Assembly (NCBI GenBank): GCA_002269645.1
Contig: NIVC01000436.1
Coordinates: 377,551 to 441,550, forward strand
Length of the DNA stretch: 64,000 nt
Source: Macrostomum lignano
Lineage: Eukaryota
Direction of reading: 5' to 3'
Part shown: piece by piece, positions 19 through 40,338 of the stretch
Numbering within the stretch: position 1 is the first letter of the stretch
How the letters are laid out: every line of letters begins with the position of its first letter
Translations under genes and position numbers: made by a program
Notes under the pieces: model-generated
What the model was told of the DNA's origin: nothing
Databases searched by the model: none
The model's input: only the letters and a program-made list of their open reading frames with translations

Positions 19-3000
19 CTTGAACGTGGAGGTGGACAAGACTCAGCGCTACGTGACAGAGATCAGCCAGTTGAAAAATGAAATCGTCGACAAAGACTAT
101 CAAATTCGCGAGCTGAATATGAATCTTAACCAGGCCCAATACGACAACAGCGGGATGAAGAAAGACTTGGAAACAAAGACTAGACTGGCTGAGGACTTGA
201 AGCGACAGTGAGTCGACTATTTTGAAATTTATTTTCAGTCGAAAGGAAATATAATTGCAAACATTACAATGTCTAAATTTTGTAGACTTGATCTAAGCAA
301 AAGCGAGTACAAAGACACCACCAATCGTCTGCAGATTGTGGAAGAGAAACTTTCTTTTCAGGAATCATTCACAGAAGAAGTGAGTAAAGCATGTTGACAA
401 ATAAATTTAAGCTTCAAATGATGTTGAGAAAGTTGAACTTAACCTACAGTATGCTAATAGACTATGACTTCTCCCGTAATCATTAGAAGGCATGGAACTA
501 AGCTTTGTGAGTATCTGGGTAAAGTTCAATATTTATAAAGTCGTGACTATAATGACCAGGAGAGGGTAGAGTCCGAGCTCCGCCATGACCAGGAGAGGGT
601 AGAGTCCGAGCTCCGCCATGACTAGGAGACTGTAGAGTCCGAGCTCCGCCATGACCAGGAGAGGGTAGAGCTCCGCCATGACTAGGAGACTGTAGAGTCC
701 GAGCTCCGCCATGACCAGGAGAGGGTAGAGCTCCGCCATGACTAGGAGACTGTAGAGTCCGAGCTCCGCCATGACCAGGAGAGGGTAGAGTCCGAGCTCC
801 GCCATGAACAGGAGAGAGGGTAGAGTCCGAGCTCCGCCATGACCAGGAGAGGGTAGAGCTCCGCCATGACTAGGAGACTGTAGAGTCCGAGCTCCGCCAT
901 GACCAGGAGAGGGTAGAGTCCGAGCTCCGCCATGAACAGGAGAGAGGGTAGAGTCCGAGCTCCGCCATGACCAGGAGAGAGGGTAGAGCCCGAGCTCCGC
1001 CATGACCAGGAGAGAGGGTAGAGTCCGAGCTCCGCCATGACCAGGAGAGAGGGTAGAGTCCGAGCTCCGCCATGACCAGGAGAGAGGGTAGAGCCCGAGC
1101 TCCGCCATGACCAGGAGAGAGGGTAGAGTCCGAGCTCCGCCATCAAAGGCATCCTTTAACAGTGACAAACTATAAATCACTAACGTATAACGACACCAAT
1201 TGCAGCGCATGGGCGAGCTCAAGCGTCGAATCGAGACCTACCTGATGCAGATTGCTGAGCTAGAAAACAAATGCGAACTGTCCGAAGCTCGAGAGGCCGC
1301 CTTCCCCGACCAGCTTCGCCAAGTGAAAGAGACGGCGGACGCCGATTTGCGCAAGTTTCAACGCGACACTGAGGAGTTCTACAAGGGCAGCATCCAGACG
1401 CTGCAGGAGCAGCTCGAGGAGGAGATTGGCGAGAACAAAAAACTGCAGGGCGAAGTTGAACGACTCAACGATAAGATTGTTGAGTACAGGAATCAGGTGA
1501 GAAATGCATTTGCAAGCATAGATGATTATTGGACCCCTTTGCGATTGGCTATGCTAAAGCTCAGTTCATGTGGCACACATTTCCATTTGGACATTTTAAT
1601 CACTAGCTCATCAATCGCAGGTTACGGAGCTGAAGTCTCAAATCACCATGCTGGAGCAGCAGAAGCGCGTTCTCAGCCAATCATTGGAGTCTGAACGTCA
1701 CCAGAACACGTACGCAATCAGCGGACTCGAGCGCAAGCTCAAGGAGGTCCAACAGGAACTGCAGGCCAAGGTGACCGAGATGAACCAGAAACAGGACGTG
1801 AGCGCCTCGCTCCGGGCAGAGCTGGACGCGATGCGCGCTCTGATTGAGGAGGAGGAGACCCGGCTGGGAATCCGGATCAGGCCGGCTGCGCCCATCAACT
1901 ATCCCGGAAGCGGTGGCAACGGCGGAGGCACTCAGCAGCAGCAGCAGTTGACAACAGTTACAACTGTAGTTGAAGCTACCAGTACGTCGAAGACTGCCGA
2001 GACAACAACAGCCGTTGTTGCCTCAACTCAGGTGGCAGGTAAAACTGAACAAACTAAAACCAAAACTTCGAACGCGGAGGCAACAAGCTCCTCAGAGGTG
2101 CAACACGACATTGCTGAGCAGAAGCGGCCGCAGTTGAAGCAGCGCGACTCGGACTGGCAGAAGATGAGGTTCCTCGCCGAGGAGACTCAGAAAGCTATGG
2201 CCAACAGCGGCGGCGGCGGCGGCTCGTCTGGCAGCTCGCAGGCCGGAGAGGAGGGCATGCAACTGGACCTGAACGAAGCGACTGCAGCGTCGGCCGACGA
2301 GGCGGTGTCGCCTAACGATGGCTACGACGAGCCGAAAACTCCGCGTGACAAAGTGGTCGGACCCGTGCTGGGCGGCAGTAGCAAGGGACCGGGCGTATCC
2401 AATGCCGTTGGACCTCTGGTTGGTGCTGGGGCGTCTGGCGACAAAGAAGCGACACCACCTAGGAGCGGGTCGAGTAAGTGCACTCTGTTTGCCTTACTCT
2501 GTTTAAACACCAATCTTATCTATCTCGCTTCGGATTGGCTTATCGTAGCATCCTGACAGCTTCAGATGATCGTAAACGTGCTTTGACCTCTTCACCATGC
2601 ACATGCATTTTCCTAATGATATCTTGCATTAATTAGTTCAATGAAACAATGCCCCTTTCTAATTAGGAGGGAGTTCATTTTGCGATACGAATCATTTTGG
2701 AAAACTTCTCATAAACAGGCAAACGTCGCTCTGCACGCAACGAAGGCGAGGGTCGCGACTACTTCGAGGAGTTGTTCGAAGACATCGACGATCGGATGGA
2801 GGAGGCAGGCGCAATGCAGCCGCAGCCTCAGGATACGTCGGTCATGCAGTCCAGGTGAGTCAAGACTTTTAATTAAGGTTACCTAGCGAAATAAGAGACG
2901 AGATCCTGAGATGAAATAGAGTGAGGCGAAGTAACTGATAGCTAAGTATATGATCAGGTGATTATTTAAAAAAAGTTAATATGCAACATGCATGACATAA

Positions 3001-7473: not shown

Positions 7474-8517
7474 TGAAGTACTGGTGTCTTGCTGCTTCCC
7501 AATCAGTTGCGAGAGCTGCCTACCTTGAGCTCCTCTGGGAAGTCTCCAGGTTGATCTAGTAGCGTCGGTAGTGCTGCCACCAGCTTCGCAGAGTCGCAGC
7601 CTTCGGTGAGGTGCTGAGCTCGTAGAAGCAAATAATTAAGACGAGAGAAAGAGACTCGCACTCCGTGCAGATTTAGCAGTTCTCGCGCAGAGGTGCCCAC
7701 CGTCAGCAGTCCCTGCCGGGCTGGTGCGGGGTGAGAGCGAAAGTGCTAGCTTCGGGCGATCTGAGCTGGCCTGCTAGCTGATAGCAGGAACAATCAGAGC
7801 CAGAGGCAGTCACGCGCAAAGTCGGGAGTCTTGGAGTTCAACTTAAGCGCAAACTTGGCACACAAACTTAGAGGCTTGAACTGAGAAAATCTCGGGCTCG
7901 AAAACAGGAGAGAAAGCCGGTTAACGGAAGGAAAGAAAGGCTTGTCTGAGCCAAGCCAGGAGAGGGGCTGCATTTATAGGGAGGATCGATTGCACCATAG
8001 CACGAAAGGCCCCCGCTGAGAGTCATAAGTGACTCTGTTGCTATTTTTAGCAACAAACAAGCGGGCCCTGCCTCAGAGGAGGCAAGGGGGGTCCGGGCGC
8101 ACGTGATCTCCCATAAACACGAGCCCAGCGTACAATGATGAAATCATTGCACTTTGGACTAAAGAAGGAAGAGGGCCTTGTCATGTGACTGACTCACATG
8201 ACAAGGGGAAAAGGCCCACAAGTGAAGGCACTCGTGACCGTGGGACCGGAAAACAGGAAGGCACTCCAAATTTGGAGATGCCTGACAGAGAACGAAACAG
8301 AGGCAGGCCAGACCAAGCTGTCTGGGCACTGCAAAAAGGGAAAGCGAGACAAAAGGGGCAAACGAGGACAAACAGACAGACAGACAAACGGGCAGAGGAC
8401 AGGCCAGGGACAGGCGGGAGGGACAGGCAACTGCCCAGCGGCAGACAGAAACCAGGGGAGAAGGCGAGGGCAACAGCTGACTAGTGCGGCGCCTAACTAA
8501 ACTAGCGACTCACTACA
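7474..8517 (-). repeat. 3' LTR (1044 bp)
   Basis: Matches 16504-17549 except for two 1-bp homopolymer indels seen by eye. TATA-like CTATAAATG on the minus strand near 7970-7978. Confidence 0.97.
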
Positions 8518-8529
8518 CTCTCCCCGTTC
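8518..8529 (-). promoter_or_regulatory. Polypurine tract (plus-strand primer)
   Basis: Minus strand reads GAACGGGGAGAG immediately before the TGTAGTG start of the 3' LTR. Confidence 0.85.
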
Positions 8530-8919
8530 AAATAAAGAGGCGGAGTGAAGCGGCGCGCGCTTTATTTAAAACAAAGTAAACGTGAATTTACTGACAAAAG
8601 AAAACACACAAAATTTCAAATGCGCTCGTGAAATTGCGCGACTGGCCAGGTCGTAAAGATAGTGGCCTGATACCGCGGGGGCGCCAACCCGCTAATAGCC
8701 TGCGCCTAACTATTCCTCGTGCTCCAGCCCGCAAAATTAGTGCTCGAATTTGGTGTGGGGGCGCCGGCCCACCCTAGAAATGGCGCCTAAATATTGCGCG
8801 GGCGATACCTGAATACACAAGCCAACCGGCTTAAAATTCCTGCATAAGGGCGCTTAACTAGCGCGGCAAACGGGGCAGCTTCATTGTCAACAGGGCGTAC
8901 ATCAGCGTACGGCCGCCAA

Positions 8920-10062
8920 TCAGTCAAAATAGCACAGACGCGGAGTCATCAAGAGCATCGGCAGGTCTTCTTCCCCGCCGCCCATGAATCGGGCAACGCG
9001 GACGGCCGCCAGGTGGAGAGCGTACGGCCGGTTCGGCCGCTCCAGGTCGGGGCCGGCCAGGCCGACCGCCTCCGCGAATAACCGGCTCCTCTCCTCGGCC
9101 GTGGTTTGACGGAGCTCCGCCCAGATCGGGCCACCGAGGTCAACGATTTCTCCGCCTTGCCGAGCCGCTCTGACGAGTACAGCGCTTATCAGGTTGGCGC
9201 CGGCAGCGATGACGGTAGCTCGGTATTCCGGTATTGGCGACTCCGTTTGAGTGCCGGTATCGAGCGTTTCCGCCGGACGTTCGGGCGATGGTGGCGGGGC
9301 CCTGGACAGGGTGCGGCGCAGCGACGCGGCCAGGTCGGTCCAAACAGCTGAGGAGCATGCGGCCGCTCCCTGAGTGTCATCGGTCCAAGACATCGGAGAC
9401 GGGGCCGCGTCGGGATGCCTGGCGTCGTCGAGATCCCCTCCGCGTTCATCTGTTCCGCCGGGCCTGCCGTGGTGCTCCGACCCGACTCGCTCACGGGCCG
9501 CCGGCCGAGCCCCGTCGATGTCTGGAAGGGAATTGCGGACTTGGAGGCGGATGTCCGCCAAGCCCCGCATCACCTGCTGTTCCAGCTGCACGTAAGCCAA
9601 AGCGGCCGCGATCCGGTCGACCATGAGTGTCCGCGCAGTCGCGTCTGGCGATGGCGAGTCGCGCGTGAGGTCGATGACTTCGGGCGAGTGTCGTTGACCC
9701 CGAGCGGGGTGTTGAGCTGCATGGCTCTCCAGAACGGGCGAAGGGCTTCGCCTGGGTGCCGATGTTCGGAGTGGCCTCCCATTCCGCCTCTGGGGCTCGG
9801 GGGACGGCGTGCGACGGTGATGGCGCCGATCAACCTGGCGCGTCGGCCTCGCCGAGCCGTTGCCTTCAGCCCTGAGTCTCCGGTTAATTGTCTCCAGCGG
9901 GCGCCGCGGGATCCCCATGGTCTCTGGCGAGACCGGGGTACCAGGTCGGCGCCGGCTACGGCTAGGCCGCCCTTGCTCCGCATCGGACGAGGAGCTTGAG
10001 CTCACGTGGAGCGGACGCTTGTGCATTTCTGCGCTGCAAGGTTTTAATTTGTGCACACGCAT
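8920..10062 (-). CDS. Retrotransposon ORF3, 380 aa, non-env, unknown function
   Basis: Uninterrupted ATG-initiated ORF between pol and the PPT. No signal peptide or TM helix is evident. Arg/Ser/Pro-rich N-terminus, VIDLT and IVDL motifs, DTGTQTE motif, helical-looking C-terminus. Confidence 0.75.
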   Translation of the reverse strand: MRVHKLKPCSAEMHKRPLHVSSSSSSDAEQGRPSRSRRRPGTPVSPETMGIPRRPLETINRRLRAEGNGSARPTRQVDRRHHRRTPSPEPQRRNGRPLRTSAPRRSPSPVLESHAAQHPARGQRHSPEVIDLTRDSPSPDATARTLMVDRIAAALAYVQLEQQVMRGLADIRLQVRNSLPDIDGARPAARERVGSEHHGRPGGTDERGGDLDDARHPDAAPSPMSWTDDTQGAAACSSAVWTDLAASLRRTLSRAPPPSPERPAETLDTGTQTESPIPEYRATVIAAGANLISAVLVRAARQGGEIVDLGGPIWAELRQTTAEERSRLFAEAVGLAGPDLERPNRPYALHLAAVRVARFMGGGEEDLPMLLMTPRLCYFD

Positions 10063-10481
10063 GCGGGCGGTGCGACTAACGTACGTTTTGGCCCTAGGAT
10101 CGCTAATCAGAAGCCTCTCGGCGGCCTCCGATCCCTAACTGGCCTACCTACCACTACTGGTATAGGAGACGCTTCCACCGGAGTGGTGCAAGAAGGTGGC
10201 GCAGGAGACTGCGCCGCAGAAAAAGGTTCGGGAAGGGGGGACGCGTGGGCAGGTGAAAAAGAAGCAGCAGGTGCAGACGCATTCAAACCAGGCACACCAT
10301 CATGGCGATCACCATACGGCAGTGGCTCACGCCGAAATGCACTTGCCTGGTTCGCTGGTGTCGTGACCGGTCCACCTCCTGGCTGCACATCCGGGATCGC
10401 CAACGGCCGGAAGCGCCACCGGAAGGCCGGCCATGCGTCATCATCATCATCGTCCTCGTCGGATCGTCCTCCGGATCGGTG

Positions 10482-11630
10482 TCAGGGTCGCGGGTCCTGC
10501 ACCGTCCGGGCATCAGTCGACCTGCGGCGTTTCTTGGCCTGGTCGACTTCTGGATCCGAAGTCAGCTGGTAGTCGGCATCAGGGACGAGTAGCAGATTCC
10601 GGCGATGGACTACTAGCTCGTCGCGCCTGGCCCGCGGGTTTGGCACTCTACGGCGAATCTTGTAGACGACCTCGCCCTTGGGTTCGACTACCTCGTACAG
10701 CGCTTTGCGAGGTCGATGGAACTTCGCCGCTTCATCCGGTTCGAGCACCGGGTTGTTGAGGAAAACCAGGTCACCAGGTTGGAGCTTCTTGGCAGCGGGC
10801 AGGTTCGAATAGTGCTCGTCGCGCAGTTGCTGATGCAGATGCAGGCGTTCTTTGGCTAGCTCAGTCGCTTCGTCCAAACGGCGCTGGAAGTCCTTGACAT
10901 AGTCAGGCAGATTGGCATACTCCGGCAGCTTCTTGATCGCGTTGTCGATTGGTAGTCGAAAGTCTCGACCAAACACCAGGTAGTGAGGCGTGAAACCTGT
11001 CACCGGGTGTACACTAGAGCGGAGCGCCATCAAGCAGGCTGGGAGGAAGGTGTCCCAGTCGTTATGGTTGCGCTCGAGGAGGCAGGTGAGGACACTCTTC
11101 AGCTGCTTGTTGAGGTTCTCGACTTGCCCATTAGAAGCTGGGTTGTACGGTGTTGTCGTCGTATGCCGGATGCCAAACAGGTCGCAGAACTTCTTGAAAG
11201 CTGAGCCAGTGAAATTGGTTCCTTGATCAGTGTGTATCCAGCATGGTACACCAAAGTCAGGGATCAAGCGCTCCTGCAGGATCTTGATGACCGTCTTGGC
11301 TTTCTGGTTCCTCATCGGATAGGCGAACGGGTACTTCGACGTCGCGTCGCATAGCGTCAAGATGTAGCGGTTCCCGCTCTTGCTCTTCTGGGCGATAGGG
11401 CCTACTACATCGCAATGTACTCTTCCCAGGACTTCGCACACAGGGAAGCTCTGTACAGGTACTCGGTCTCGTCTTCGGGATTTACTTTCAAGACAGGCGC
11501 GGCACTTACTGATAAAGTTCTCGGTGACACGGGCTAGTCCGGGCCTCCAGAATCGTTCACGTAGCCGCTTCAACGTCTTCGTCTGGCCGAGGTGTCCACA
11601 CAGTGGCGAACTGTGGAGCTCCTGGAGCAC
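10482..11630 (-). CDS. pol: Integrase region of pol (HHCC + DDE); in-frame extension to 10107 after a single TGA
   Basis: LHSSPLCGH...KCRAC zinc-binding motif; VHCDVVGP, IHTDQGTNF and QVENLN catalytic motifs. Separated from the upstream ORF by a frameshift near 11661. Confidence 0.95.
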   Translation of the reverse strand: MLQELHSSPLCGHLGQTKTLKRLRERFWRPGLARVTENFISKCRACLESKSRRRDRVPVQSFPVCEVLGRVHCDVVGPIAQKSKSGNRYILTLCDATSKYPFAYPMRNQKAKTVIKILQERLIPDFGVPCWIHTDQGTNFTGSAFKKFCDLFGIRHTTTTPYNPASNGQVENLNKQLKSVLTCLLERNHNDWDTFLPACLMALRSSVHPVTGFTPHYLVFGRDFRLPIDNAIKKLPEYANLPDYVKDFQRRLDEATELAKERLHLHQQLRDEHYSNLPAAKKLQPGDLVFLNNPVLEPDEAAKFHRPRKALYEVVEPKGEVVYKIRRRVPNPRARRDELVVHRRNLLLVPDADYQLTSDPEVDQAKKRRRSTDARTVQDPRP

Positions 11631-11638
11631 CTGGGCAT

Positions 11639-13060
11639 CTAGAGCTTCGGGCAGGACAACCTTCGGGGCTGCTGGCCATCAGTCAGATCGATCATCAGCA
11701 GGCCGTTGTCCTCTCGCAGATTATCATAATATCCGAGCAGATTCCGCTGCTCCTTCGTCAGTCGCAACCGGGCGTCGAACTCAGGCTTCAGGGCTTTGTT
11801 CTCGACCAAGTTGAGCACGTAGCTGATTGCTCGGTCGGCGCGCTGCGCGTCGACAAACTGTTGCCGCGTCATCGGCATCCTCATAAAATCAGTGAGCACG
11901 GCGCGGCATGGCTGAGGGTTCCGGATTTCCTCAGTCTCCGCTTCTGTGGCTCGCAGTTGATCACGCGACTCCGTCTTGTCGGCGTCAGGATTAGGTCGCT
12001 CCGAGGGACTTTGTCTCACAACGTCGGCGTACGATCGCTGATCTCGTTTCGAAGTTCTCATCGTCGCTCTCTTGACAGGAATTTCCGCAGCTGGAGCAGT
12101 GCACTTGCCTCCACTGCACAGCCCAGGCGACTCTTGGCTGTAGGGCGAGACGCAACACGTGAAGCACGCCTCGTCGCAGGCAGCCGTAGCCGTCGGCTCG
12201 ATCATCGTCGTCATTGGGTGAGTCTTCTCCAGCACTGGGCGGTGTCGCAAAGGGGGACTCGACTTTCCGCACAGGCGATGAGCAGCTGTCTGTCGGCTCG
12301 GGGGACAGAGCGTTGACCTTGCAGCCGTCGCGAGAGTCTGGCCTCTGTCAACACGGCGAGAACTCTCAGCGCAAAACTCCGGGGAGTTGAACTTACATTG
12401 CTGGTCTGGATTCGCGTTGTGGGCTGTCATCAGAAGGGCTGCTTGTTCAGTGGCCTCTGAGTCGTGGTCCATGGGCGTCTCCAGATTCCGAGACCCGCAG
12501 TCTTGGACATCATCAAGGAGGTCTACGTCAGCAGTGGCCTCCGAGGTTTTGTCCGGGCGAATCTCCAAGTAACGGCAGTCGGCGTGGGCGTCGCTGCGGA
12601 GGGCTGAGGTGTCAGTGGCCTCCGGGTTGGTGTCCAAACCGGTCTCCAGGCGTTGACTGCAGCGATGGTCGTCGTGCTGAAGGACTGCTGGCGCAGTGGC
12701 CTCCAGGTCTTCGGCCAGGGCAGTTTCGGCCTCCTTGTTGCGAGTGTGGACCTTCTTCGTGCGGGCTGCTCTCGCAGTGGCCTCACGTGTGGTGTCCAAT
12801 TCCGGCTCCAGGCTGGTGTCATCACCGGGTCGGGCTGCAGAACCGGGGTGCTCCAGCAGTCGGCCATGTTCGAAGTCAACCGGTGGTGTCTCCGGGCGTC
12901 TTGACAGGGCGTCAGCGTTGGCGTGGTCCTTGCCTTTGCGATGGTGAAGCTGGAAGCGGAACTCGCTTAATCGCTCAATCCAACGGCCCAAGATGCCTGT
13001 GACCTGCGTCTGGTTCAGCAGCCACAGCAAGGCCCGATGGTCAGAACGAACTTCAAACTT
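11639..13060 (-). CDS. pol: pol segment: RNase H C-terminus plus long RNase H-integrase linker
   Basis: Upstream in-frame VRSDHRALLWLL...RWIERLSEFRFQLHHRKGKDHANADALSR motif, then about 340 aa of linker, then the pre-integrase helix (QFVDAQRADRAISYV). Joined to the RT ORF by an apparent 1-bp deletion at the T-run 13059-13062. Confidence 0.88.
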   Translation of the reverse strand, partial: KFEVRSDHRALLWLLNQTQVTGILGRWIERLSEFRFQLHHRKGKDHANADALSRRPETPPVDFEHGRLLEHPGSAARPGDDTSLEPELDTTREATARAARTKKVHTRNKEAETALAEDLEATAPAVLQHDDHRCSQRLETGLDTNPEATDTSALRSDAHADCRYLEIRPDKTSEATADVDLLDDVQDCGSRNLETPMDHDSEATEQAALLMTAHNANPDQQCKFNSPEFCAESSRRVDRGQTLATAARSTLCPPSRQTAAHRLCGKSSPPLRHRPVLEKTHPMTTMIEPTATAACDEACFTCCVSPYSQESPGLCSGGKCTAPAAEIPVKRATMRTSKRDQRSYADVVRQSPSERPNPDADKTESRDQLRATEAETEEIRNPQPCRAVLTDFMRMPMTRQQFVDAQRADRAISYVLNLVENKALKPEFDARLRLTKEQRNLLGYYDNLREDNGLLMIDLTDGQQPRRLSCPKL

Positions 13061-15096
13061 TTGCCGATTAAATAATGACGGAAATGTCGCATCGCGTCCA
13101 CGATTGCAAGCAGCTCTTTCTTCGTGACCGTGTAGCGCTTCTCAGGATCACGAAGCTTCCGGCTAAAGAATGCAATTGGGCGCTCGACGCCGTCGGATTG
13201 CCGTTGTCCAAGACAAGCGCCTATGCGAATGTCTGAGGCATCCGTGTCTAGGACAAACTTCACATTAGGATCTGAGTTAAACTCAGGCAGAGCGAGAACT
13301 TCAGTCGAACACAACTTCTTCTTCAACGTGTCGAACGCTACCTGGTGCTCATCAGTCCAATGCTGCCGCAGGCTGCCGATGTCCTTTCGAGTCAGGGCAT
13401 GTAGCGGCGCAGCAAATCCAGCGTAGCCGTTGACAAACTTGTGGTAGTAATTGGCGAGGCCTAGGAATTGTCTCAGTTGAGTAACGGACTGTGGCACGGG
13501 CCAATCACGGATCTGCGCAATCTTGTCCTCACAGGTCTTCAGGCCGTCGGGAGTCACGACGTGGCCTAGATAATGCAGCTCCTTGAGGAACAAATGGCAC
13601 TTCTTCGGCTTGACCTTGAGGTTGGCTGCGATAATCCGCTGGAGTACAGTCCGCAGGTTGTCCAGCTGCTCCTCGAAGGTCACAGAGTGCACCACGATGT
13701 CATCCATGTAGCCAAGCGCAGTCTTTGGCGTCAGGCCGTCCAGGAGCTTATTGATGCAACGCTGAAAGCTGCCTGGACTATCGTGGAGACCCATCGGTAG
13801 AACATTGAAACAGAATTGTCCGCGGTCAATCACAGAGAACGCCGTCAGGTGCTGATCGCAGTCGCGCAGCGGGATCTGCCAGAATCCTTGAGCGAGATCC
13901 AAGCTAGAGTACCACTGGGCACCACGCAGCTTCGCGAAGGTCTCCTGAATGTGCGGCAGCGGGTACGGGTGGTACACACACTTGTCGTTGAGAGCTCTGA
14001 AGTCATGCACCAGCCTGATGTTGCCGTCCTTCTTGGGCACTATCAGCATTGGCGAGTTGTAGCTAGAATAAGCCGGGCGAATGATGTGCTTCGCCAGCAT
14101 CTCGTCTAGCAGGGCGTCTAGCTTGTCCTTCAGATGAGGCGGGATCCTGCGCGGTGGTAGCGCAACTGGTGTCCGATCCTTCAGGATGATCTCGTGGGTC
14201 ACCAGGTGTGTCAGGCCAGCGTCTAGCAGATGCTTCGAGAAGGCTGCTTGACACTCAACTAGTAGATCTCGCACTCTCTGTCGTTGATCTTCGGACAGCT
14301 CGCTGTTGATCTCGACTTCCTCTAGCCAAGCTGTGCTGGACTCTTCAGGGCTCCTTGGCAAATGTCGCACTTCAGGTTCCGGCGTCTCTTCCAGGTACAT
14401 CAGGTCGGCAGTTCTAAGTGGTGTCGCAACACCAACGCGGATGCCCGACTGCAGGAACACCTCACAGTCAGCAGTGTTGACGACCTCGATGTAGCCTCGA
14501 CCTTCAGGCATAGTCATCAGAGCTGGAGCTGCTTCCAGAGTGTTGCAGCTGGGGTGCAGTCTCGACTTCACCAGCTCGACGATTGATGGCGATCCTCGGT
14601 TCTCGGGGTGGCCGACATCCAACTGGACGGCCAACAGCGCTGAACTTCTCGGCGGCAGAGTGCACTTCTCGGAGGTGTACACCCGGCATGATTGAAGCTC
14701 ACGGCGCGAATAGCGAACGGGAATGCACGCGCCATTGTTGAACTTTAACATTCCTTGAGCAAAGTCCAAGTTCTGGCAGTGTTCACGCATGAAATTAATA
14801 CCAAGCAAATTTTCACAATCGGTGACCGTGACCAGGAATTCGGTGTCCGCGACGACATCACCGAACTCCACCGGGATGATCACCTTACACGCAAGGGGTA
14901 GCTGCGTACCGTCGTACATGGTCACGCAATCCGGGATAGCATGCGATATGATACAACGAGGCATCCGACGTCTAACATTGGCCCAGGTCGACGCTCCAAG
15001 AAAGTTTTTCCGACTGCCGCTGTCTAGTAGGAAAGGGACTTCTCGGCCCGCCAATCGGCCGGTGACGTACGGATCAGCCTCACGCGCATGGATTTT
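13015..15096 (-). CDS. pol: pol segment: aspartic protease, reverse transcriptase, RNase H
   Basis: FLLDSG protease motif; RLVHDFRALN, LDLAQGFWQ, LPMGL and GYMDD RT motifs; LDTDASDIRIGACL RNase H motif. Confidence 0.97.
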   Translation of the reverse strand, partial: KIHAREADPYVTGRLAGREVPFLLDSGSRKNFLGASTWANVRRRMPRCIISHAIPDCVTMYDGTQLPLACKVIIPVEFGDVVADTEFLVTVTDCENLLGINFMREHCQNLDFAQGMLKFNNGACIPVRYSRRELQSCRVYTSEKCTLPPRSSALLAVQLDVGHPENRGSPSIVELVKSRLHPSCNTLEAAPALMTMPEGRGYIEVVNTADCEVFLQSGIRVGVATPLRTADLMYLEETPEPEVRHLPRSPEESSTAWLEEVEINSELSEDQRQRVRDLLVECQAAFSKHLLDAGLTHLVTHEIILKDRTPVALPPRRIPPHLKDKLDALLDEMLAKHIIRPAYSSYNSPMLIVPKKDGNIRLVHDFRALNDKCVYHPYPLPHIQETFAKLRGAQWYSSLDLAQGFWQIPLRDCDQHLTAFSVIDRGQFCFNVLPMGLHDSPGSFQRCINKLLDGLTPKTALGYMDDIVVHSVTFEEQLDNLRTVLQRIIAANLKVKPKKCHLFLKELHYLGHVVTPDGLKTCEDKIAQIRDWPVPQSVTQLRQFLGLANYYHKFVNGYAGFAAPLHALTRKDIGSLRQHWTDEHQVAFDTLKKKLCSTEVLALPEFNSDPNVKFVLDTDASDIRIGACLGQRQSDGVERPIAFFSRKLRDPEKRYTVTKKELLAIVDAMRHFRHYLIGKSLKFVLTIGPCCGC

Positions 15097-15137: not shown

Positions 15138-16307
15138 TTACTGATGAGCGACTGTCGGACTGGGCATTGGCGCCTGCGCAGCCGACATCCTCTTCTTCTG
15201 GTGAGCGTTCGGAGTCTGCCAAGTAGCCGGGGCTTGGGCTCTGCGGAGGGCGTTGCCGTGGGCGCTCTCCGTCTCGCCGTTTCCCTGGTTCTGGCGTAAC
15301 GGGCACTGTGCATTGCGATGACCAGGCTGACCGCAGCCATAGCAGATCATGGCTTTCGAAGGCGGACTCGTCTTCTGCTGCTGGTCACGCTGCACCAGGT
15401 TGTCTAGCAGTCGCTGCTGTTTCTCTAGCAGATCAGTCAGAGCTAGGAGAGCTTGAGCGGTGGCGTCGGGCGTCGGGTCACCGTCGCGCTCCCCGTTCAG
15501 CATGCGAACCGGGGGTTGAGCAGAGCGCTGCGCCAGTTCCTTGGCGCCTTCCAGACGATGGAGTTCTCGAATAGCGGCCAGCAGATTGTTCGGGCGGACC
15601 CAATAGAGCCGCTCGCGCAGATCTGGTGTCGTCCTGATGCCAGCTAGGAACTGATCAGCCAGCTCCCGCTCTCGATCCTCAGGGTGCATTCGAGGGTACG
15701 CTCGCTCTCCCAAGGTGCGCAGGGCATCAGCGTACTCTTCTGCTGACTCATTCTTGCCTTGCTGACGGCGCCTCAGCAGCTCTCGATATTCATCCGCGCC
15801 ACCGTGGCGGGCGAATCTCTCGATCAGTCGCTGCCTGACCTCCTCGTAGCCAGCATAGCGTGGGAGGTGCATACTGAGCAGAGCCGGGTAAGCGGTTGCC
15901 AGATCTAGACTCGCAACGAGGTGCTGCTTCATCTCGATCGGGTCTTCGATACGCTCCATCTCGCAGCGCTGCTCGAACGCGGCGAGCCAGACGTGGATGT
16001 CCTGGCTGGGCGTGTACTTTACAATCTTAACAGATTTGCTTACCGGCCGCTCCATCTGCTGCTGCAGAGCTGCCATCATCGTTCTCACATCCTGGGGCCT
16101 GATGTTCTGGCCGAGGTCGTCCAAACCTGGCAGAAGCTCGTCTGGCGGGTCTTCGGACACTTCGCTTCTCGCACTTCGCCGCGGCATCTGCTGACCAAGG
16201 TCGTTGACCGCTGCTGCTGCGGCAGCCGATGCTGCTGCAGGTCTCGAACTGCTGATGTGCTGATCCAGCCGGCTGCTGCACCGGCTCTCTTCTCTCTCGT
16301 TAAACAT
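15138..16307 (-). CDS. gag: gag, 389 aa, with CCHC zinc knuckle
   Basis: ATG ORF about 200 bp after the 5' LTR. Capsid-like helical region and CYGCGQPGHRNAQC (C-x2-C-x4-H-x4-C). Confidence 0.92.
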   Translation of the reverse strand: MFNEREESRCSSRLDQHISSSRPAAASAAAAAAVNDLGQQMPRRSARSEVSEDPPDELLPGLDDLGQNIRPQDVRTMMAALQQQMERPVSKSVKIVKYTPSQDIHVWLAAFEQRCEMERIEDPIEMKQHLVASLDLATAYPALLSMHLPRYAGYEEVRQRLIERFARHGGADEYRELLRRRQQGKNESAEEYADALRTLGERAYPRMHPEDRERELADQFLAGIRTTPDLRERLYWVRPNNLLAAIRELHRLEGAKELAQRSAQPPVRMLNGERDGDPTPDATAQALLALTDLLEKQQRLLDNLVQRDQQQKTSPPSKAMICYGCGQPGHRNAQCPLRQNQGNGETESAHGNALRRAQAPATWQTPNAHQKKRMSAAQAPMPSPTVAHQ

Positions 16308-16395
16308 TTCAAATTAGTAGAATAGCCGAATTCTTACTCGAAAGAGCGGTTGTCTTGGGTGTAGTAGTAGTCGAATCTTGACTTGTCGGATCCCA

Positions 16396-16488
16396 GATAG
16401 TCGTGTCGTTGACTCGTCGAATCCCAGATAGTCGTGTCGTTGACTCGTCGAATCCCAGATAGTCGTGTCGTTGACTCGTCGAATCCCA
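16396..16488. repeat. 3 x 31-bp tandem repeat overlapping the PBS in the element's 5' leader
   Basis: GATAGTCGTGTCGTTGACTCGTCGAATCCCA occurs three times; the last copy runs into the PBS. Confidence 0.9.
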
Positions 16489-16502
16489 CCGCTGAGTCAC
16501 CA
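16479..16502 (-). promoter_or_regulatory. Primer-binding site, tRNA-Leu-like, with an internal bulge
   Basis: 1 nt after the 5' LTR the minus strand reads TGGTGACTCAGCGGTGGGATTCGA. The + strand TCGAATCCCACCGCTG...CACCA resembles metazoan tRNA-Leu 3' ends (TCGAATCCCACCGCTGCCA-CCA). Confidence 0.75.
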
Positions 16503-16503
16503 G

Positions 16504-17549
16504 TGAAGTACTGGTGTCTTGCTGCTTCCCAATCAGTTGCGAGAGCTGCCTACCTTGAGCTCCTCTGGGAAGTCTCCAGGTTGATCTAGTAGCGTCGGTA
16601 GTGCTGCCACCAGCTTCGCAGAGTCGCAGCCTTCGGTGAGGTGCTGAGCTCGTAGAAGCAAATAATTAAGACGAGAGAAAGAGACTCGCACTCCGTGCAG
16701 ATTTAGCAGTTCTCGCGCAGAGGTGCCCACCGTCAGCAGTCCCTGCCGGGCTGGTGCGGGGTGAGAGCGAAAGTGCTAGCTTCGGGCGATCTGAGCTGGC
16801 CTGCTAGCTGATAGCAGGAACAATCAGAGCCAGAGGCAGTCACGCGCAAAGTCGGGAGTCTTGGAGTTCAACTTAAGCGCAAACTTGGCACACAAACTTA
16901 GAGGCTTGAACTGAGAAAATCTCGGGCTCGAAAACAGGAGAGAAAGCCGGTTAACGGAAGGAAAGAAAGGCTTGTCTGAGCCAAGCCAGGAGAGGGGCTG
17001 CATTTATAGGGAGGATCGATTGCACCATAGCACGAAAGGCCCCCGCTGAGAGTCATAAGTGACTCTGTTGCTATTTTTAGCAACAAACAAGCGGGCCCTG
17101 CCTCAGAGGAGGCAAGGGGGGGTCCGGGCGCACGTGATCTCCCCATAAACACGAGCCCAGCGTACAATGATGAAATCATTGCACTTTGGACTAAAGAAGG
17201 AAGAGGGCCTTGTCATGTGACTGACTCACATGACAAGGGGAAAAGGCCCACAAGTGAAGGCACTCGTGACCGTGGGACCGGAAAACAGGAAGGCACTCCA
17301 AATTTGGAGATGCCTGACAGAGAACGAAACAGAGGCAGGCCAGACCAAGCTGTCTGGGCACTGCAAAAAGGGAAAGCGAGACAAAAGGGGCAAACGAGGA
17401 CAAACAGACAGACAGACAAACGGGCAGAGGACAGGCCAGGGACAGGCGGGAGGGACAGGCAACTGCCCAGCGGCAGACAGAAACCAGGGGAGAAGGCGAG
17501 GGCAACAGCTGACTAGTGCGGCGCCTAACTAAACTAGCGACTCACTACA
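16504..17549 (-). repeat. 5' LTR (1046 bp)
   Basis: Partner of 7474-8517. TATA-like CTATAAATG on the minus strand near 17001-17009. Confidence 0.97.
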
Positions 17550-20994: not shown

Positions 20995-22975
20995 TCTAGT
21001 AGCTTTGGAGTGAGTCTAGTAGCTTTGGAGGGAGTCTATAGTAGCTTTGGAGTGAGTCTATAGTAGCTTTGGAGTGAGTCTAGTAGTTTTGGAGTGAGTC
21101 TATAGTAGCTTTGGAGTGAGTCTAGTAGTTTTGGAGTGAGTCTAGTAGTTTTGGAGGGAGTCTATAGTAGCTTTGAAGTGAGTCTAGTAGTTTTGGAGGG
21201 AGTCTATAGTAGCTTTGGAGTGAGTCTATAGTAGCTTTGGAGTGAGTCTAGTAGCTTTGGAGTGAGTCTAGCAGTAGCTTTGGAGTGAGTCTAGTAGTTT
21301 TGGAGTGAGTCTAGTAGCTTTGGAGTGAGTCTATAGTAGTTTTGGAGGGAGTCTATAGTAGCTTTGGAGTGAGTCTAGTAGCTTTGGAGTGAGTCTAGTA
21401 GCTTTGGAGTGAGTCTATAGTAGCTTTGGAGTGAGTCTAGTAGCTTTGGAGTGAGTCTAGTAGCTTTGGAGTGAGTCTATAGTAGCTTTGGAGTGAGTCT
21501 AGTAGCTTTGGAGTGAGTCTATAGTAGCTTTGGAGTGAGTCTAGTAGCTTTGGAGTGAGTCTAGTAGCTTTGGAGGGAGTCTATAGTAGCTTTGGAGTGA
21601 GTCTAGTAGCTTTGGAGTGAGTCTATAGTAGCTTTGGAGTGAGTCTAGTAGCTTTGGAGTGAGTCTATAGTAGCTTTGGAGTGAGTCTAGTAGCTTTGGA
21701 GTGAGTCTAGCAGTAGCTTTGGAGTGAGTCTAGTAGTTTTGGAGGGAGTCTATAGTAGCTTTGGAGTGAGTCTATAGTAGCTTTGGAGTGAGTCTAGTAG
21801 TTTTGGAGGGAGTCTATAGTAGCTTTGGAGTGAGTCTATAGTAGCTTTGGAGTGAGTCTATAGTAGCTTTGGAGTGAGTCTAGTAGCTTTGGAGTGAGTC
21901 TAGCAGTAGCTTTGGAGTGAGTCTAGTAGTTTTGGAGGGAGTCTATAGTAGCTTTGGAGTGAGTCTATAGTAGCTTTGGAGTGAGTCTAGTAGTTTTGGA
22001 GGGAGTCTATAGTAGCTTTGGAGTGAGTCTATAGTAGCTTTGGAGTGAGTCTAGTAGCTTTGGAGTGAGTCTAGTAGTTTTGGAGGGAGTCTATAGTAGC
22101 TTTGGAGTGAGTCTATAGTAGCTTTGGAGTGAGTCTATGGTAGCTTTGGAGTGAGTCCTTAGTAGCTTTGGAGTGAGTCTAGCAGCTTTGGAGTGAGTCT
22201 ATAGTAGCTTTGGAGTGAGTCTAGTAGCTTTGGAGTGAGTCTAGCAGTAGCTTTGGAGTGAGTCTAGTAGTTTTGGAGGGAGTCTATAGTAGCTTTGGAG
22301 TGAGTCTATAGTAGCTTTGGAGTGAGTCTATGGTAGCTTTGGAGGGAGTCTATAGTAGCTTTGGAGTGAGTCTATAGTAGCTTTGGAGTGAGTCTAGTAG
22401 CTTTGGAGTGAGTCTAGCAGTAGCTTTGGAGTGAGTCTAGTAGTTTTGGAGGGAGTCTATAGTAGCTTTGGAGTGAGTCTATAGTAGCTTTGGAGTGAGT
22501 CTATGGTAGCTTTGGAGGGAGTCTATAGTAGCTTTGGAGTGAGTCTATAGTAGCTTTGGAGTGAGTCTATAGTAGCTTTGGAGTGAGTCTATGGTAGCTT
22601 TGGAGTGAGTCCTTAGTAGCTTTGGAGTGAGTATAGCAGCTTTGGAGTGAGTCTATAGTAGCTTTGGAGTGAGTCTAGTAGCTTTGGAGTGAGTCTATAG
22701 TAGCTTTGGAGTGAGTCTAGTAGCTTTGGAGTGAGTCTATAGTAGCTTTGGAGTGAGTCTAGTAGCTTTGGAGTGAGTCTAGTAGCTTTGGAGTGAGTCT
22801 ATAGTAGCTTTGGAGTGAGTCTATAGTAGCTTTGGAGTGAGTCTAGTAGCTTTGGAGTGAGTCTAGTAGCTTTTGAGTGAGTCTAGTAGCTTTGGAGTGA
22901 GTCTAGTAGCTTTTGAGTGAGTCTAGTAGCTTCAGAGTGAGTCTAGTAACTTCGGAGTAACTATTTTAGTAGCTT
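20995..22975. repeat. ~2-kb satellite, 20/22-bp unit GGAGTGAGTCTA(TA)GTAGCTTT
   Basis: Directly visible. It is the reverse complement of arrays inside the GM2A-like gene introns. Confidence 0.97.
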
Positions 22976-23483
22976 CGGAGAAACTTTTGTACTAGCGTTT
23001 CTTAGCCTGCGTTGTCCTACTTGCGTATTGGAGGAACTTCAAAACAACAATGACTCAATACAAAAAGTAGTGCAAACTGCAACGAAAGATTGGAAGAGAA
23101 GAAACCGTCTATCGACTCACAAAATCACGCCACCAATATCGGAAGAATCCAAGAAAGTTCAGCTGCCGTTTAATCAGTCCCAGTCAAGCACCGGGTGGCG
23201 TGACCCGCCCGTCACTCGGGCAGGTCAATGTTTAACTCGACTAAACCCCAACTGGAGAGTGGCCTGACCCGATACCGCATAATTCTCTTAGAAATGCACG
23301 TTTTCGGCTATGGAAACAAGGCAGCTGTTGGAGTCCCACGGCACCGGACACCTACTTGTGTTATTCGGTTGCGAAGGCTATAAATTGGCGAAGGATTGGC
23401 GGGATTCTGATTCTGTACACTGCAATTACTTTCAACACCTTCAAGTGTTCTATAGCGACAGATCCTACCCATTGACTTCTAGA

Positions 23484-26032
23484 ATGCAGCTGCTTCTTGT
23501 CACCCTTGCTCTGGTGGCCGCCGGTGCCTCTGCTGAGCAGCTTCAGTGGAAAGACTGCGGTGAGTGTGTACCGACTGCATTGAGACCCATTGCAGTGCTG
23601 CTAGCCTCACTCAAAGGCTACTTGACTCACTCCAAGGCTACTAGACTCACTCCAAGGCTACTAGACTCACTCCAAGGCTACTTGACTCACTCCAAGGCTA
23701 CTAGACTCACTCCAAGGCTACTTGACTCACTCCAAGGCTACTAGACTCAACCCAAGGCTGCTTGACTCACTCCAAGGCTACTAGACTAACTCCAAGGCTA
23801 TTAGAGTCACTTTAAAGCTAATAAAGTCACTCCAAAGCTAATAGAGTCATTCTGAAGCTAATAGAGTCGCTCCAAAGCTAATAGAGTCACTCCAAAAAGC
23901 TAATAGAGTCACTCCAAAGCTAATAGAGTCACTCCGAAGCTAAAAGAGTCACTCCGAAGCTAATAGAGTCACTCCAATGCCAATAGAGCCACTCCAAAGC
24001 TAATAGAGTCACTGCAAAGCTAATAGAGTCACTCCAAAGCTAATAGAGTCACTCCAAAGCTAATAGAGTTACTCTAAAGCTAATAGAGTCACTCCAAAGC
24101 TAATATAGTCACTCCGAAGCTAATAAAGTCGCTCCAAAGCTAATAGAGTCACTCCGAAGCTAATAGAGTCACTCCGAAGCTAATAGAGTCACTCCAAAGC
24201 TAATAGAGTCACTCCAAAGCTAATAGAGTCACTCCGAAGCTAAAAGAGTCACTCCGAAGCTAATAGAGTCACTCCAATGCCAATAGAGCCACTCCAAAGC
24301 TAATAGAGTCACTGCAAAGCTAATAGAGTCACTCCAAAGCTAATAGAGTCACTCCAAAGCTAATAGAGTTACTCTAAAGCTAATAGAGTCACTCCAAAGC
24401 TAATATAGTCACTCCGAAGCTAATAAAGTCGCTCCAAAGCTAATAGAGTCACTCCGAAGCTAATAGAGTCACTCCGAAGCTAATAGAGTCACTCCGAAGC
24501 TAATATAGTCACTCCGAAGCTAATAGAGTCACTGCGAAGCTAATAGAGTCACTCCGAAGCTAATAGAGTCACTCCGAAGCTAATAGAGTCACTCCAAAGC
24601 TGGATCTCTTCAAGTCTATTAGAAGCACTACCACTGCATAAAAATGACTCCAACTCATTCCAGGCTCCTCCAGCGACATCGTGAAGATCACTGACTTCGG
24701 CATGCGCCCCTACCCGCCGATCGCTCAGAAGGGCTTCAACTTCCAGCTGTTCGTCAAGGGTCGCGTCAACAGGGACTTCGGCGAGGCCAAGATGAACCTG
24801 AAGCTGTCCCGCAAGGTCCTGGGCTTCTGGGTCCCGATCCCCTGCCTTGCTGGCTACGGTAGCTGCACCTACGACAACGGCTGCCAGCTGATGGACACCC
24901 TCCTCCGCGAGGCCTCCATCCCGGAGATCCCCGACGAGTGCCCTGGCATCCGCGCCCAGAATGTCGACATGGCCAACAGCATCACCCTGCCCGAGATTCC
25001 CGGCCCTCTGGCTTGGCTCGTGTCGGTAAGAGGAAATCTCCGCTCCAATGCTTGTAGTATAACTCTAATGTCTGCAGTATAACTCCAATGTCTGCAGTAT
25101 AACTCCAATGTCTGCAGTATAACTCCAATGTCTGCAGTATAACTCCAATGTCTGTAGTATAACTCCAATGTCTGTAGTATAACTCCAATGTCTGCAGTAT
25201 AACTCCAATGTCTGTAGTATAACTCCAATGTCTGCAGTATAACTCCAATGTCTGCAGTATAACTCCAATGTCTGCAGTATAACTCCAATGTCTGTAGTAT
25301 AACTCCAATGTCTGTAGTATAACTCCAATGTCTGCAGTATAACTCCAATGTCTGCAGTATAACTCCAATGTCTGCAGTATAACTCCAATGTCTGCAGTAT
25401 AACTCCAATGTCTGCAGTATAACTCCAATGTCTGTAGTATAACTCCAATGTCTGTAGTATAACTCCAATGTCTGTAGTATAACTCCAATGTCTGTAGAAT
25501 AACTTTAAATTACAACGGCTCTAAATCGTCTTCTAAACAATCTAAAGCCACTAGACTCACTCCAAAGCTACTTGACTCACTCCAAAGCTACTAGACTCAC
25601 TCCAAAGCTACTTGACTCACTCCAAAGCTACTAGACTCACTCCAAAGCTACTAGACTCACTCCAAAGCTACTAGACTCACTCCAAAGCTACTAGACTCAC
25701 TACAAAGCTACTAGACTCACTCCAAAGCTACTAGACTCACCCCAAAGCTACTAGACTCACTCCAGAGCTACTAGACTCACCCCAAAGCTACTAGACTCAC
25801 TACAAAGCTACTAGACTCACTCCAAAGCTACTAGACTCACCCCAAAGCTACTAGACTCACTCCAGAGCTACTAGACTCTGCCCGACTCACTCACTTAGCT
25901 GCCAGACTGCTACACAGAATAAAATGCCAATCAATTTCGCAGGGCACTTACCGCGCCCGCGGCGAGGTGATCGAGAACGGCAGCAATGCCCGCGTGATCT
26001 GCATGGAGCTTGAGGGTCGCATTGAAGATTAA
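23484..26032 (+). CDS. GM2A: Ganglioside GM2 activator-like ML-domain lipid-transfer protein, 175 aa, secreted/lysosomal
   Basis: Exons 23484-23559, 24664-25025, 25943-26032 in consistent phase. Signal peptide MQLLLVTLALVAAGASA, QWKDCG, WVPIPCLAGYGSCTYDNGC, LAWLVSGTYR and C-terminal ICMEL match the GM2A/ML pattern. Confidence 0.87.
23606..24600. repeat. Intron-1 satellite (ACTCC(A/G)AAGCTA(C/A)TAGA(C/G)TC family) with a 300-bp higher-order duplication
   Basis: Reverse-complement relative of 20995-22975. The variant ACTCCAATGCCAATAGAGCC recurs 300 bp apart (~23971 and ~24271). Confidence 0.95.
25050..25500. repeat. 20-bp minisatellite AACTCCAATGTCTG(C/T)AGTAT (intron 2)
   Basis: About 22 near-perfect copies. 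The minus-strand LELYCRHWSY ORFs are translations of this repeat. Confidence 0.97.
25545..25880. repeat. 20-bp minisatellite AAAGCTACTAGACTCACTCC (intron 2)
   Basis: Exact reverse complement of the unit in 20995-22975. Confidence 0.97.
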
Positions 26033-29560: not shown

Positions 29561-31362
29561 ATGTCTGGTTTATCTGGCATAGGCCTACTAATCTACAACG
29601 CAGCCCTAGGATCAGTGTTCGCTGTTGGTCTCCTTGGCAACTGCCTAGTGATCGGGGTGATCTTACGCCAACGCTCCGGTACTCGATCGCCAACGAGTAT
29701 CTACCTGGCTAATTTAGCTCTGGCCGATGCTCTGCACCTGTTGTCGATACCGCCTCTGATTCATACGTCCATCGCGAACTACTGGGCTTGGTCAGAGCTG
29801 GCCTGCAAGGTGTATTACCTACTGTTCTACATGAACTCCACCATGTCAGTTTATATCATCACTGCTATGAGCTTCGATCGCTATAAAGCAGTCGTGTCGC
29901 CATTCACTTCGGCCGGCTTGCGTAACAAACGATTTGCCAGCATCATTCTCGTCGCCCTGTGGATCATTGGAGCCCTGGTGATCAGCCCCGTCTGCTTGTA
30001 TGCTCATATTGATGAGCTGTACAACGCCACGCACTGCACGCATTCACAGGTAAGAATTGGACACAGCTAAAGGGACACAGGCGCGTCGAATGGTACAATA
30101 TAATTAATACGACTCTGTGAGGTATTCAACCAAACATATTTGATCAAGAACCTTTCGAATGAAGCAGTAAACGTGATCAGTAAACTCAGTAACGCCAGAA
30201 ACACACAGTCAGTAACGCCAGTAACACACAATGAGTAACGCCAGTAACACACAGTCAGTAACGCCAGTAACACACAGTCAGTAACGCCAGTAACACACAG
30301 TCCGTAACGCCAGTAACACACAGTCCGTAACGCCAGTAACACACAGTCAGTAACGCCAGTAACACACAGCCAGTAAAGTGTTCAGTTTCGTAACATAGTC
30401 ACTAATGTGTGAAGTAACCATGAGCATAAATGTCTTTGTGTCAACCACTTTGACACAAAATTGACAAAAATACAACAGTTTGAACACATTTATAGAAAAC
30501 AAAACTCGTCTCTAATGCTCCATTCTACCAGTGTTTTCACAGCTGTCTCACAATTTCTCTCGCACAGATGCCACCGATGGAGGACGCCAACGAGACGGAG
30601 CCGGTGCCAGACGATCTGTCCGACATGATGCGCAGCTTTTTCACGCATCCAGCCTACTTCATTCGCTACATTTTTGTCACCGGCTGCGTGCTGCCCGGCC
30701 TAATGCTGATCTGCTTCTACTCGCTGATTGTGCACAAGCTCTACATGATGAAGCTCGCCAGGAACTCCAGCGGTCAGGCCCGACAGAGATTCGAGAAGGT
30801 CACCTTGCTTGTTGGAGCCGTTGTCGCTTTCTACGTTGTCTGTTGCCTGCCTCACTGGGTGCACGTGAACGTGAGCCTGAGCGTGAGCGGCCACTCCTAC
30901 TGGCTGGTGGTCAGCTCCCACATCACCGCCCTGCTCGGCTACGTCAGCAGCGCCGGAAATCCCGTGCTCTACGCCTTTTTAAACGACCCGTTTCGAGCGT
31001 CACTACGTGAGTTTCTCGGCATCAACGGGCCGGCCGGCGCTGGTGGCGCTGGCGGAGCGCTGGGCGCTGCCGGCGCTGGCGGCGCTGCTGGCGGAGCTGC
31101 CGGTGCAGCGGCTGTAGCCGGCGGCGCAGCCGGAGCGGCAGACGGGCTGATTTCGGGCACCGGCGGGGCTGCCGACGCGGAGGCCGTCGCCACCACCCGG
31201 CAGCTGTTGAGTGGCAGCGTCGGAACCGGCGGCATCTTCGGCGGTGGAGCTGTCGTTGTTGGCGGCGGTGGCGGCGAGGGATCTCCAACGATGGGCCTGA
31301 CGACCTACAATGTCACCTCTATGGAGAGTCAAGAGCACGGACAGGAACAGTCGGCTGTGTAA
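29561..31362 (+). CDS. Class A (rhodopsin-like) peptide GPCR, somatostatin/opioid/allatostatin-C receptor-like, ~427 aa
   Basis: Exons 29561-30049 and 30568-31362 (phase 0). GN in TM1, LALAD in TM2, SFDRY, TM4 W, CCLP in TM6, NPVLY in TM7, Gly/Ala-rich tail. Confidence 0.9.
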
Positions 31363-37504: not shown

Positions 37505-39953
<2,449 letters not shown>

Positions 39954-40338
39954 GTATCAAATGCTCCTGAAATTAAATAACTCATTTTTTCTGCATAGAA
40001 ATCAAAGAAAAAATGCTGAAACAATGGGGGTTCCGGCCAGCCCAGGCCGCAGCTGGTGGCAAGCGAGTTAATCCAAACCCTATCAGGGTGAAATGACCCT
40101 TGTACGAATGCATTATAAATCACTGCTTGCACTATACTAATTTTTTTGTATCGGCTGATTGTGAAAATGTGGCGCGACTTTTTATTAGAATAAATCTATA
40201 AATTAGCCGGGCTATTCGTGTCTAATTCCCACACTTGGTTGAGGCTTTTTAATTCGAAATCCATTCTCTGATAGTGGCGACGTAGTTTTGCTTAATTTCC
40301 CAGACAAATTAATTTCCGGATTAGGCGCTAAAAGAAAC

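Follow-up and report, generated by a model that had tools for sequence, protein, structure and literature searches.

A Pol-fused accessory gene with predicted SUMO- and LC8-binding motifs, carried as an exchangeable cassette by a Ty3/Gypsy retrotransposon of Macrostomum lignano

Accessory ORFs located behind pol are already known, as are accessory proteins made by splicing and anti-silencing activities encoded by the elements themselves. Among the closest described systems is CERV, a non-env accessory protein of the Ty3/Gypsy element Cer1 of C. elegans. As described in the available text of its source papers, CERV is made from a spliced mRNA with or without SL1 and is needed for gRNA export; it is nuclear, predicted to multimerize, and fast-evolving (PMC3315495, PMC10309623). 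VANC proteins of the plant VANDAL DNA transposons are described, in the portions of the literature available, as element-encoded, fast-diversifying, sequence-specific DNA binders proposed to counter silencing. In the available descriptions, the place between pol and the 3' LTR is taken by extra ORFs in plant and bdelloid LTR retrotransposons and by env and sORFs in insect errantiviruses. Among non-retroelement proteins, excerpts of the sources give VIDLT as the high-affinity core of the PIAS1 SUMO-interacting motif (SIM) (PMC3901395) and EVIDLT as an adenovirus E1A segment that binds Ubc9 and alters PML bodies (PMC5030357). SUMO and LC8 also take part in fly piRNA silencing, according to the part of the source available (PMC8490990). 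Plant VANDALs and many viruses actively counter host silencing, and the locus reported here bears on the question of whether retrotransposons of animals do likewise.

The window, that is, the whole stretch of DNA analysed, is 64,000 nt of Macrostomum lignano. The host element is a 10.1-kb LTR retrotransposon on its minus strand (Table 1). A target-site duplication flanks its LTRs, and it has gag with a single CCHC knuckle and a pol whose domains follow the PR-RT-RH-INT order of Ty3/Gypsy elements. Since the twin LTRs differ by two one-base indels only and the 4-bp duplication is present, the insertion is young. The pol of the window copy is split over four frames. Public records name Macrostomum lignano for proteins identical to the tails of related copies. 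The window LTR was unlike the Mlig-id38 LTRs when compared by eye, and no heat-shock element word was found in it.

Table 1. Positions of the retrotransposon features in the 64,000-nt window.
Feature	Position	Strand	Remark
5' LTR	16504..17549	-	matches 3' LTR except for two one-base indels; 4-bp target-site duplication
3' LTR	7474..8517	-	
gag frame with zinc knuckle	15138..16313	-	
pol piece: protease, RT, RNase H	13015..15096	-	
pol piece: RNase H end and ~345-codon spacer	11639..13141	-	
pol piece: integrase	10482..11678	-	
pol piece: post-integrase linker	10107..10481	-	the "extended pol frame" of the first-pass annotation; unbroken with integrase and tail in most sisters
GC-AG intron inside pol	10034..10346	-	314/311 nt in 13/14 types, not a multiple of three
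Conserved 3' splice acceptor, YTNCAG form	10034..10039	-	7 nt before Met13
Accessory ORF from Met13 (367 aa + stop), also Pol C-terminus	8920..10026	-	cassette start
SIM VIDLT, then acidic or Ser-Pro residues	9664..9678	-	
Predicted long helix, aa 139-178	9529..9648	-	
Conserved Trp-led amphipathic helix, then PPxSP-like stretch	9307..9342	-	
Predicted LC8-binding motif LDTGTQTESP	9235..9264	-	TQT at 9252-9244
Predicted five-helix C-terminal domain, ~aa 278-372	8947..9231	-	
Cassette 3'UTR	8518..8919	-	repeated module 8756-8793 and 8673-8712; polypurine tract adjoins LTR
Conserved AATAAA	8566-8561	-	element's only sense AATAAA; before polypurine tract, not in LTR

Several other features were observed in the window. 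Tandem repeats of 31 nt occupy 16378-16503, downstream of a tRNA-primer-like site, and in some copies primer-site-like units are repeated where the LTR ends. The spacer between RNase H and integrase (~345 codons, 11700-12900, minus strand) is open with dN/dS of ~0.5-1.3 at very low dS, and the equivalent spacer is much shorter in the sister Pol compared; the spacer is possibly under RNA-level constraint. Host exons encode a rhodopsin-family 7TM receptor (30496-31362, plus strand) and an otopetrin (51711-52247, plus strand), and a host exon at 1600-2556 (plus strand) has a weak intermediate-filament match. Long simple-repeat arrays and inverted arrays lie at 37350-40000 and 21000-26000.

The first-pass annotation described a separate ORF3 that starts 45 nt past the pol frame and ends about 400 bp before the polypurine tract. 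The 380-codon open frame was present at 10062-8920 (minus strand), and the distance from its stop to the 3' LTR was 404 nt in the window's tail type. The separation from pol was not borne out. Integrase and tail formed a single frame in 20 of 61 copies, which comprised the window and 60 fetched 10-kb loci picked from search hits and are not a census. The fused frame was seen in 12 of the 14 tail types; the other two had no fused copy among those examined. The frame from integrase to the junction was open in 30 of the 48 copies with both anchors, and in a genome search the tail ended frames of 1852, 2139, 2215, and 2206 codons in other copies. Compared with 12 near-identical sisters, the window showed one-base indels at ~10119, 10460, 10475, and 10510, each against 10-12 of the 12. 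Short-read contigs from four runs of four studies had the sisters' state at 10119 (3/4), 10459 (2/4), and 10507 (4/4). Because one-base indels are scattered in all copies and also occur between the twin LTRs, they point to assembly error as the likely source of the window's gap before ORF3; private mutation of the window copy may be an alternative source. In this family, "ORF3" is the C-terminal end of Pol (the tail), not a free-standing ORF.

The start codon of the tail was also revised. The ATG given by the first-pass annotation was kept in only 7 of 14 types, and the ATG of Met13 (10026) was kept in 14 of 14. The junction was found in 52 of the 61 copies, and 50 of these had the YTNCAG acceptor; both exceptions were intron-less copies. 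Identity across types was 0.93-1.0 from -13 to +5 of the acceptor region, except at the N position, and ~0.5 from +6. According to the available text on Macrostomum lignano, YTNCAG is the top trans-splice acceptor motif and the spliced leader is 35 nt long and ends in ATG (PMC8629364); mapped leader sites were used to cut the gene models of the species (PMC5730564, in the part available). The starts of four public proteins equal to tails are offset from Met13 by 0, 0, +1, and -2 residues, although the reading frame in the DNA stays open for another 554-1228 residues upstream. At offset -2 lies the first complete codon past the acceptor.

A GC-type donor was present 311-314 nt upstream of the acceptor in 14 of 14 types. 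Exact loss of the intron was found in C1341 and in C2766/C1069, which represent two lineages and three genome hits, and each flank of the intron-less copies matched its own lineage. The GC-AG intron was the sole deletion among those listed that recurred in two lineages and was bounded on either side by splice signals. Since its two ends have three bases in common, template switching is an alternative, though weaker, cause of the intron loss. A longer spliced form common to all types was considered and rejected: in-frame ATGs upstream of the donor occur in 10 of 14 types and are absent in the other 4. A stretch of ~65 nt around the GC donor (10310-10376, minus strand) was nearly invariant in the 14 types, third positions included, and the donor region showed no special folding; the question was raised of whether this stretch is a splice regulator or an internal promoter.

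The first-pass annotation proposed a separate ORF3 transcript as a check. The acceptor and the gene-model starts make a tail-only form likely, and no junction reads were seen in the contigs. Among the joints listed for the short-read contigs, whose RNA origin was guessed, no splice joint was found, nor was any leader read seen. A leader ending in ATG would yield a contig end at 10034; a contig of one run did end there, at the last base of the acceptor, but was discounted since three other runs read through. A tail-only mRNA very probably exists, as judged from these sequence features, and the AATAAA at 8561-8566 may end it.

The tail has relatives outside the window's family. In a sister lineage, pol stops a few codons past the position of the acceptor and a separate ORF of ~370 aa lies behind it (fully resolved at 4 of 6 loci). 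The C-domains of these proteins scored 14-29 bits on the family profile in 6 of 6 cases, and 0 of 200 shuffles scored as high. By eye, each protein viewed had a TQ motif resembling that of LC8 clients, and a stretch resembling a SIM was also noted in this homologue. No open frame longer than 384 codons was found among the 37 matches of this lineage. The free-standing gene of the first-pass annotation is therefore not seen in the window's family, in which it is fused, and does occur in the sister lineage as a homologous separate gene. Since the homologue there is separate from Pol, the core job of the tail is independent of fusion.

A more distant sister group has the same geometry, and the one Pol compared was 55-57% identical. 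An acceptor was found 13-27 nt before an ATG in 16 of 16 loci of this group (one of which belongs to the nearer lineage), and 14 of the 16 held a separate ORF of 229-278 aa. C-domain homology was not shown for this group (hhalign probability 0.1; 7 of 7 within the shuffle range). The presence of separate ORFs in two outside lineages suggests that Pol fusion is the derived state. As a side observation, the separate ORF3 of the distant families (L157-L172), 236-278 aa long, has NLS-like and SIM-like stretches, an acidic helix, and a conserved Cys-containing C-domain without a Pfam match, and is listed as a second undescribed accessory family.

The 29 unbroken tails fell into 14 types that were 26-71% identical, whereas RT and integrase were mostly 93-100% identical. 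In pairs with the same core, integrase dS was 0.03-0.2 and tail dS was ~0.8-3, the high values being near saturation. The values for C1835/C347 were 0.053 for integrase and 1.6-1.7 for the tail; those for C4250/C130 were 0.08 and 1.4. In the trees, three core groups were each nearly uniform with deeply split tails, and C672 and C3051 had a common tail type on different integrase branches. The exchanged unit consists of the acceptor, the ORF, and the 3'UTR: homology is lost at the acceptor/ATG and regained at the AATAAA ~50 nt before the LTR. Fourteen deeply diverged cassette types thus circulate on near-identical cores, at dS of 1.2-1.7 for the cassettes and 0.03-0.08 for the cores. Co-variation of LTR and tail, as for a Tas/Tat-like target, was rejected, with LTRs 99.7% alike while the tails were 39% alike.

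Conservation of ORF3, proposed in the first-pass annotation as a check, was found in the form of purifying selection. The dN/dS was below 1 in all tail comparisons, with no signal of positive selection. It was 0.05-0.26 for the C-domain (pairs >60% identical) and 0.20-0.60 for the disordered part, whose dS is near saturation where diverged.

Structure prediction agreed with the disordered N-half and helical C-terminal region described earlier from the letters. The predicted order was basic Ser/Thr-Pro-rich disorder, the SIM (residues 129-133), a helix (139-178), disorder, a Trp-led helix (233-252), the LC8 motif (267-276), and a five-helix domain (~278-372, pLDDT 87 when predicted alone). The hydropathy peak was 1.68 in the window's type and 0.75-1.62 in the other 13, and corresponds to helix 1 of the predicted globular domain.

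The retention of the motifs was compared with expectation. VIDLT was exactly at 9678-9664, as first reported. The sequences EIVDL and LDTGTQTESP were also right, and their coordinates were corrected to 9150-9136 and 9264-9235. VIDLT was preferentially kept, in 10 of 14 types versus 0.02 expected, with a column identity of 0.82 versus 0.18 and 0.28 in the flanks. EIVDL, read earlier as a second SIM, could not be sustained: it occurred in 1 of 14 types versus 0.41 expected, with a column identity of 0.04. The LC8 core was kept as TQT in 8 of 14 types (0.87 expected) and as xQT in 13 of 14 (2.06 expected). These tests used simpler patterns; other LC8 and helix patterns were fitted after viewing the sequences. 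The SIM was absent from the type C4188/C46/C321, and two further types lacked it in the copy counted. In the triplicated insertion of C4188/C321/C46 (L080, L077, and L100), a linker deletion of ~190 nt uncouples the intact SIM-less tail from Pol. SUMO conjugation sites were rejected as a further feature (2 of 14 types versus 0.62 expected, not significant).

The general pattern of a type b SIM is a hydrophobic-hydrophobic-D-L-T core. The tail SIM has such a conserved core in predicted disorder with an acidic/phospho flank. By prediction only, the tail also has the features of an LC8 client, its TQT-type anchor lying in disorder and fitting into the groove of LC8. The Macrostomum lignano genome encodes LC8 and a SUMO-like protein. 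The complex-model check suggested in the first-pass annotation gave a positive result with host LC8: the 2:2 model scored 0.62 and the best control 0.00, with a mark that 51 of 78 solved pairs and 2 of 108 mismatched pairs reached. The interface was at aa 264-273, contacts were at least 85% alike from run to run, and the partner pLDDT was ~40. The positive result of the model may stem from likeness to solved LC8-peptide complexes. The tail protein is predicted to bind SUMO and LC8, and this probably holds.

The best explanation, advanced tentatively and with a little less than even confidence, is that the tail is an accessory gene, Pol-fused and likely also made alone, whose product would be a nuclear, LC8-dimerized SUMO binder that counters SUMO-dependent silencing of the element. 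Tail-only mRNA would come from spliced-leader trans-splicing or from cis-splicing, either of them using the conserved acceptor, with translation from Met13. Unspliced RNA would give Pol with the tail, and removal of the intron would shift the frame and give Pol without it. LC8 would dimerize the tail protein and its single SIM would bind SUMO, directing the protein toward SUMOylated chromatin or silencing complexes, and a host factor would be contacted by the variable helical domain. When fused to Pol, the tail would carry the same activity along with the new DNA copy. Recombination would keep exchanging old variants, as expected for a gene in host conflict.

Counter-silencing is favoured because the best-kept feature is a SIM of the PIAS1/E1A type, because the gene exists unfused in the sister lineage, and because many old variants on one core would fit the pattern of host-conflict genes. 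Host silencing as the target of the tail protein is a possible reading, held with reserve. The comparison with Drosophila Panoramix-Nxf2, the host here being a flatworm, serves as an analogy only; neither protein is known outside flies. Both the SIM and the LC8 motif are of a generic kind found in nuclear hubs, and they suit the rival roles as well. Silencing counter, RNA export, and tethering could be combined in one protein. A stronger version of the counter-silencing reading appears doubtful: a dedicated SUMO-directed gene would act through hijacked trans-splicing and integrase fusion, with at least 14 ancient alleles exchanged on one core. Such a gene would be for retroelements what hypervariable anti-defence loci are elsewhere, and its helical domain would be new.

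A Rev- or CERV-like role is somewhat unlikely. The tail-only protein would bind element RNA through an Arg-rich stretch and the 3'UTR module, multimerize via LC8, and export or protect unspliced genomic RNA bearing the unused strong acceptor. The layout of C. elegans Cer1 is the closest architectural precedent, as far as the available text shows (PMC3315495, PMC10309623), and the ORF and 3'UTR move as one cassette. Runs of 8-9 Arg per 12 residues were found in 7 of 14 types, but the other 7 had weak runs (4-6), and the SIM is the best-kept motif. The 3'UTR module, present as 1-2 units per 3'UTR where matched, has a conserved 6-bp stem with 98.4% of cells paired and one covarying pair with two-sided change (3 rows), equalled in 0 of 500 shuffles, in a structure drawn from the same sequences that were used to score it. 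However, neither of the two window modules folded better than its shuffles (z -0.12 and 1.69), and both preferred other pairings. The stem, a palindrome pair, may be either an RNA stem or a DNA site, and the core word of the module was missing from all 16 sister-family loci. The first word of the module was also observed near the LTR start (17528 and 8496).

Other LTR elements have targeting domains or chromodomains that steer insertion. It is unlikely, and more so than the RNA-binding role, that the tail acts as an integrase C-terminus that binds SUMOylated chromatin and steers integration. In accordance with such a tether, 12 of 14 types retain the in-frame integrase fusion, and the linker of ~320 codons after integrase stays open with dN/dS of 0.13-0.48. 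Against it, the sister lineage has its homologue outside Pol, and no tRNA gene was found in the 36 upstream flanks, which had sequence in common only for the one triplicated insertion and one other pair.

The tail protein was searched against sequence, structure, and literature collections. No Pfam family was found for ORF3; the Pfam and PDB sequence-family searches gave no match, env included, which does not by itself exclude an env origin. The full 380-aa protein had no homologue near its length among 8000 candidates scored. The C-domain profile, run against 1.84 billion representatives, matched own-element proteins only, apart from two evident repeat-driven matches; among longer proteins it matched one own-element model. 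The ~100-residue helical domain is thus without a match outside Macrostomum lignano in the searches run. Foldseek found nothing at E<=0.001 in PDB or BFVD, and the best VIA Z values were 5.5 for the domain (rmsd 4.2, 94 aligned) and 5.8 for the whole model (rmsd 4.6, 92 aligned); a missing fold match does not make the tail fold new. The ESM Atlas search returned nothing, and Rfam gave no match at threshold. The gene-model names were absent from the literature searched, as far as its text was available, and from five supplements of PMC12801592. The family, the C-domain, the SIM plus LC8 design, the fused/spliced layout, and the multi-allelic cassette were likewise absent from the available text of that literature and of PMC12801592; an earlier classification of the LTR elements of this species, which the latter cites, may mention the extra ORF.

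That no family, fold, or relative was found outside Macrostomum lignano and that one-base indels are frequent in assembled copies would suit a degenerate env, a fragment captured from the host, or neutral read-through in which the motifs arose by chance, but these are highly improbable and largely refuted by purifying selection and motif retention across saturated dS, the confident compact fold (pLDDT 87), the constant place in Gypsy elements, and the few cysteines, few N-glycosylation sequons, and lack of a consistent hydrophobic segment in the tail types.

With counter-silencing as the favoured reading, the family is a compact candidate system: it has two motifs that can be mutated, fused and unfused forms that occur naturally, and 14 variants found in nature, and its host is amenable to transgenesis and RNAi. 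Its resemblance to the described systems is partial. The SIM has the same core motif as adenovirus E1A CR2 (EVIDLT) and PIAS1 SIMb in the excerpts available, a likeness of motif without homology. Like the additional ORFs of LTR retrotransposons from plants and bdelloids and the env/sORFs of insect errantiviruses, the tail lies between pol and the 3' LTR; unlike them, it is part of an in-frame Pol fusion that has a GC-AG intron inside pol. Unlike errantivirus env, it has no Pfam or fold match to env among those found and no membrane-protein evidence by hydropathy. Like VANC, it is element-encoded, fast-diversifying, and proposed to counter silencing. Whereas VANCs bind specific DNA sequences, the tail has a SIM and LC8 motifs without a known DNA-binding domain, and its LTR does not co-vary with it.

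CERV is the nearest comparison in architecture, both being non-env accessory proteins of an animal Gypsy element; the nuclear location, predicted multimers, and fast evolution of CERV are counted as further likenesses. SUMO and LC8 were not mentioned in the available text of the CERV paper in a word search. CERV has exons in common with gag and H/M/G domains with a Cys loop, as described in that text, whereas the tail lies 3' of integrase, is Pol-fused, and forms a multi-allelic cassette; the two are set apart by their descriptions. Under the rival readings too, the tail would add a domain without a match in the libraries searched and would be the second Gypsy accessory protein, after CERV of Cer1, to be produced through splicing or trans-splicing.
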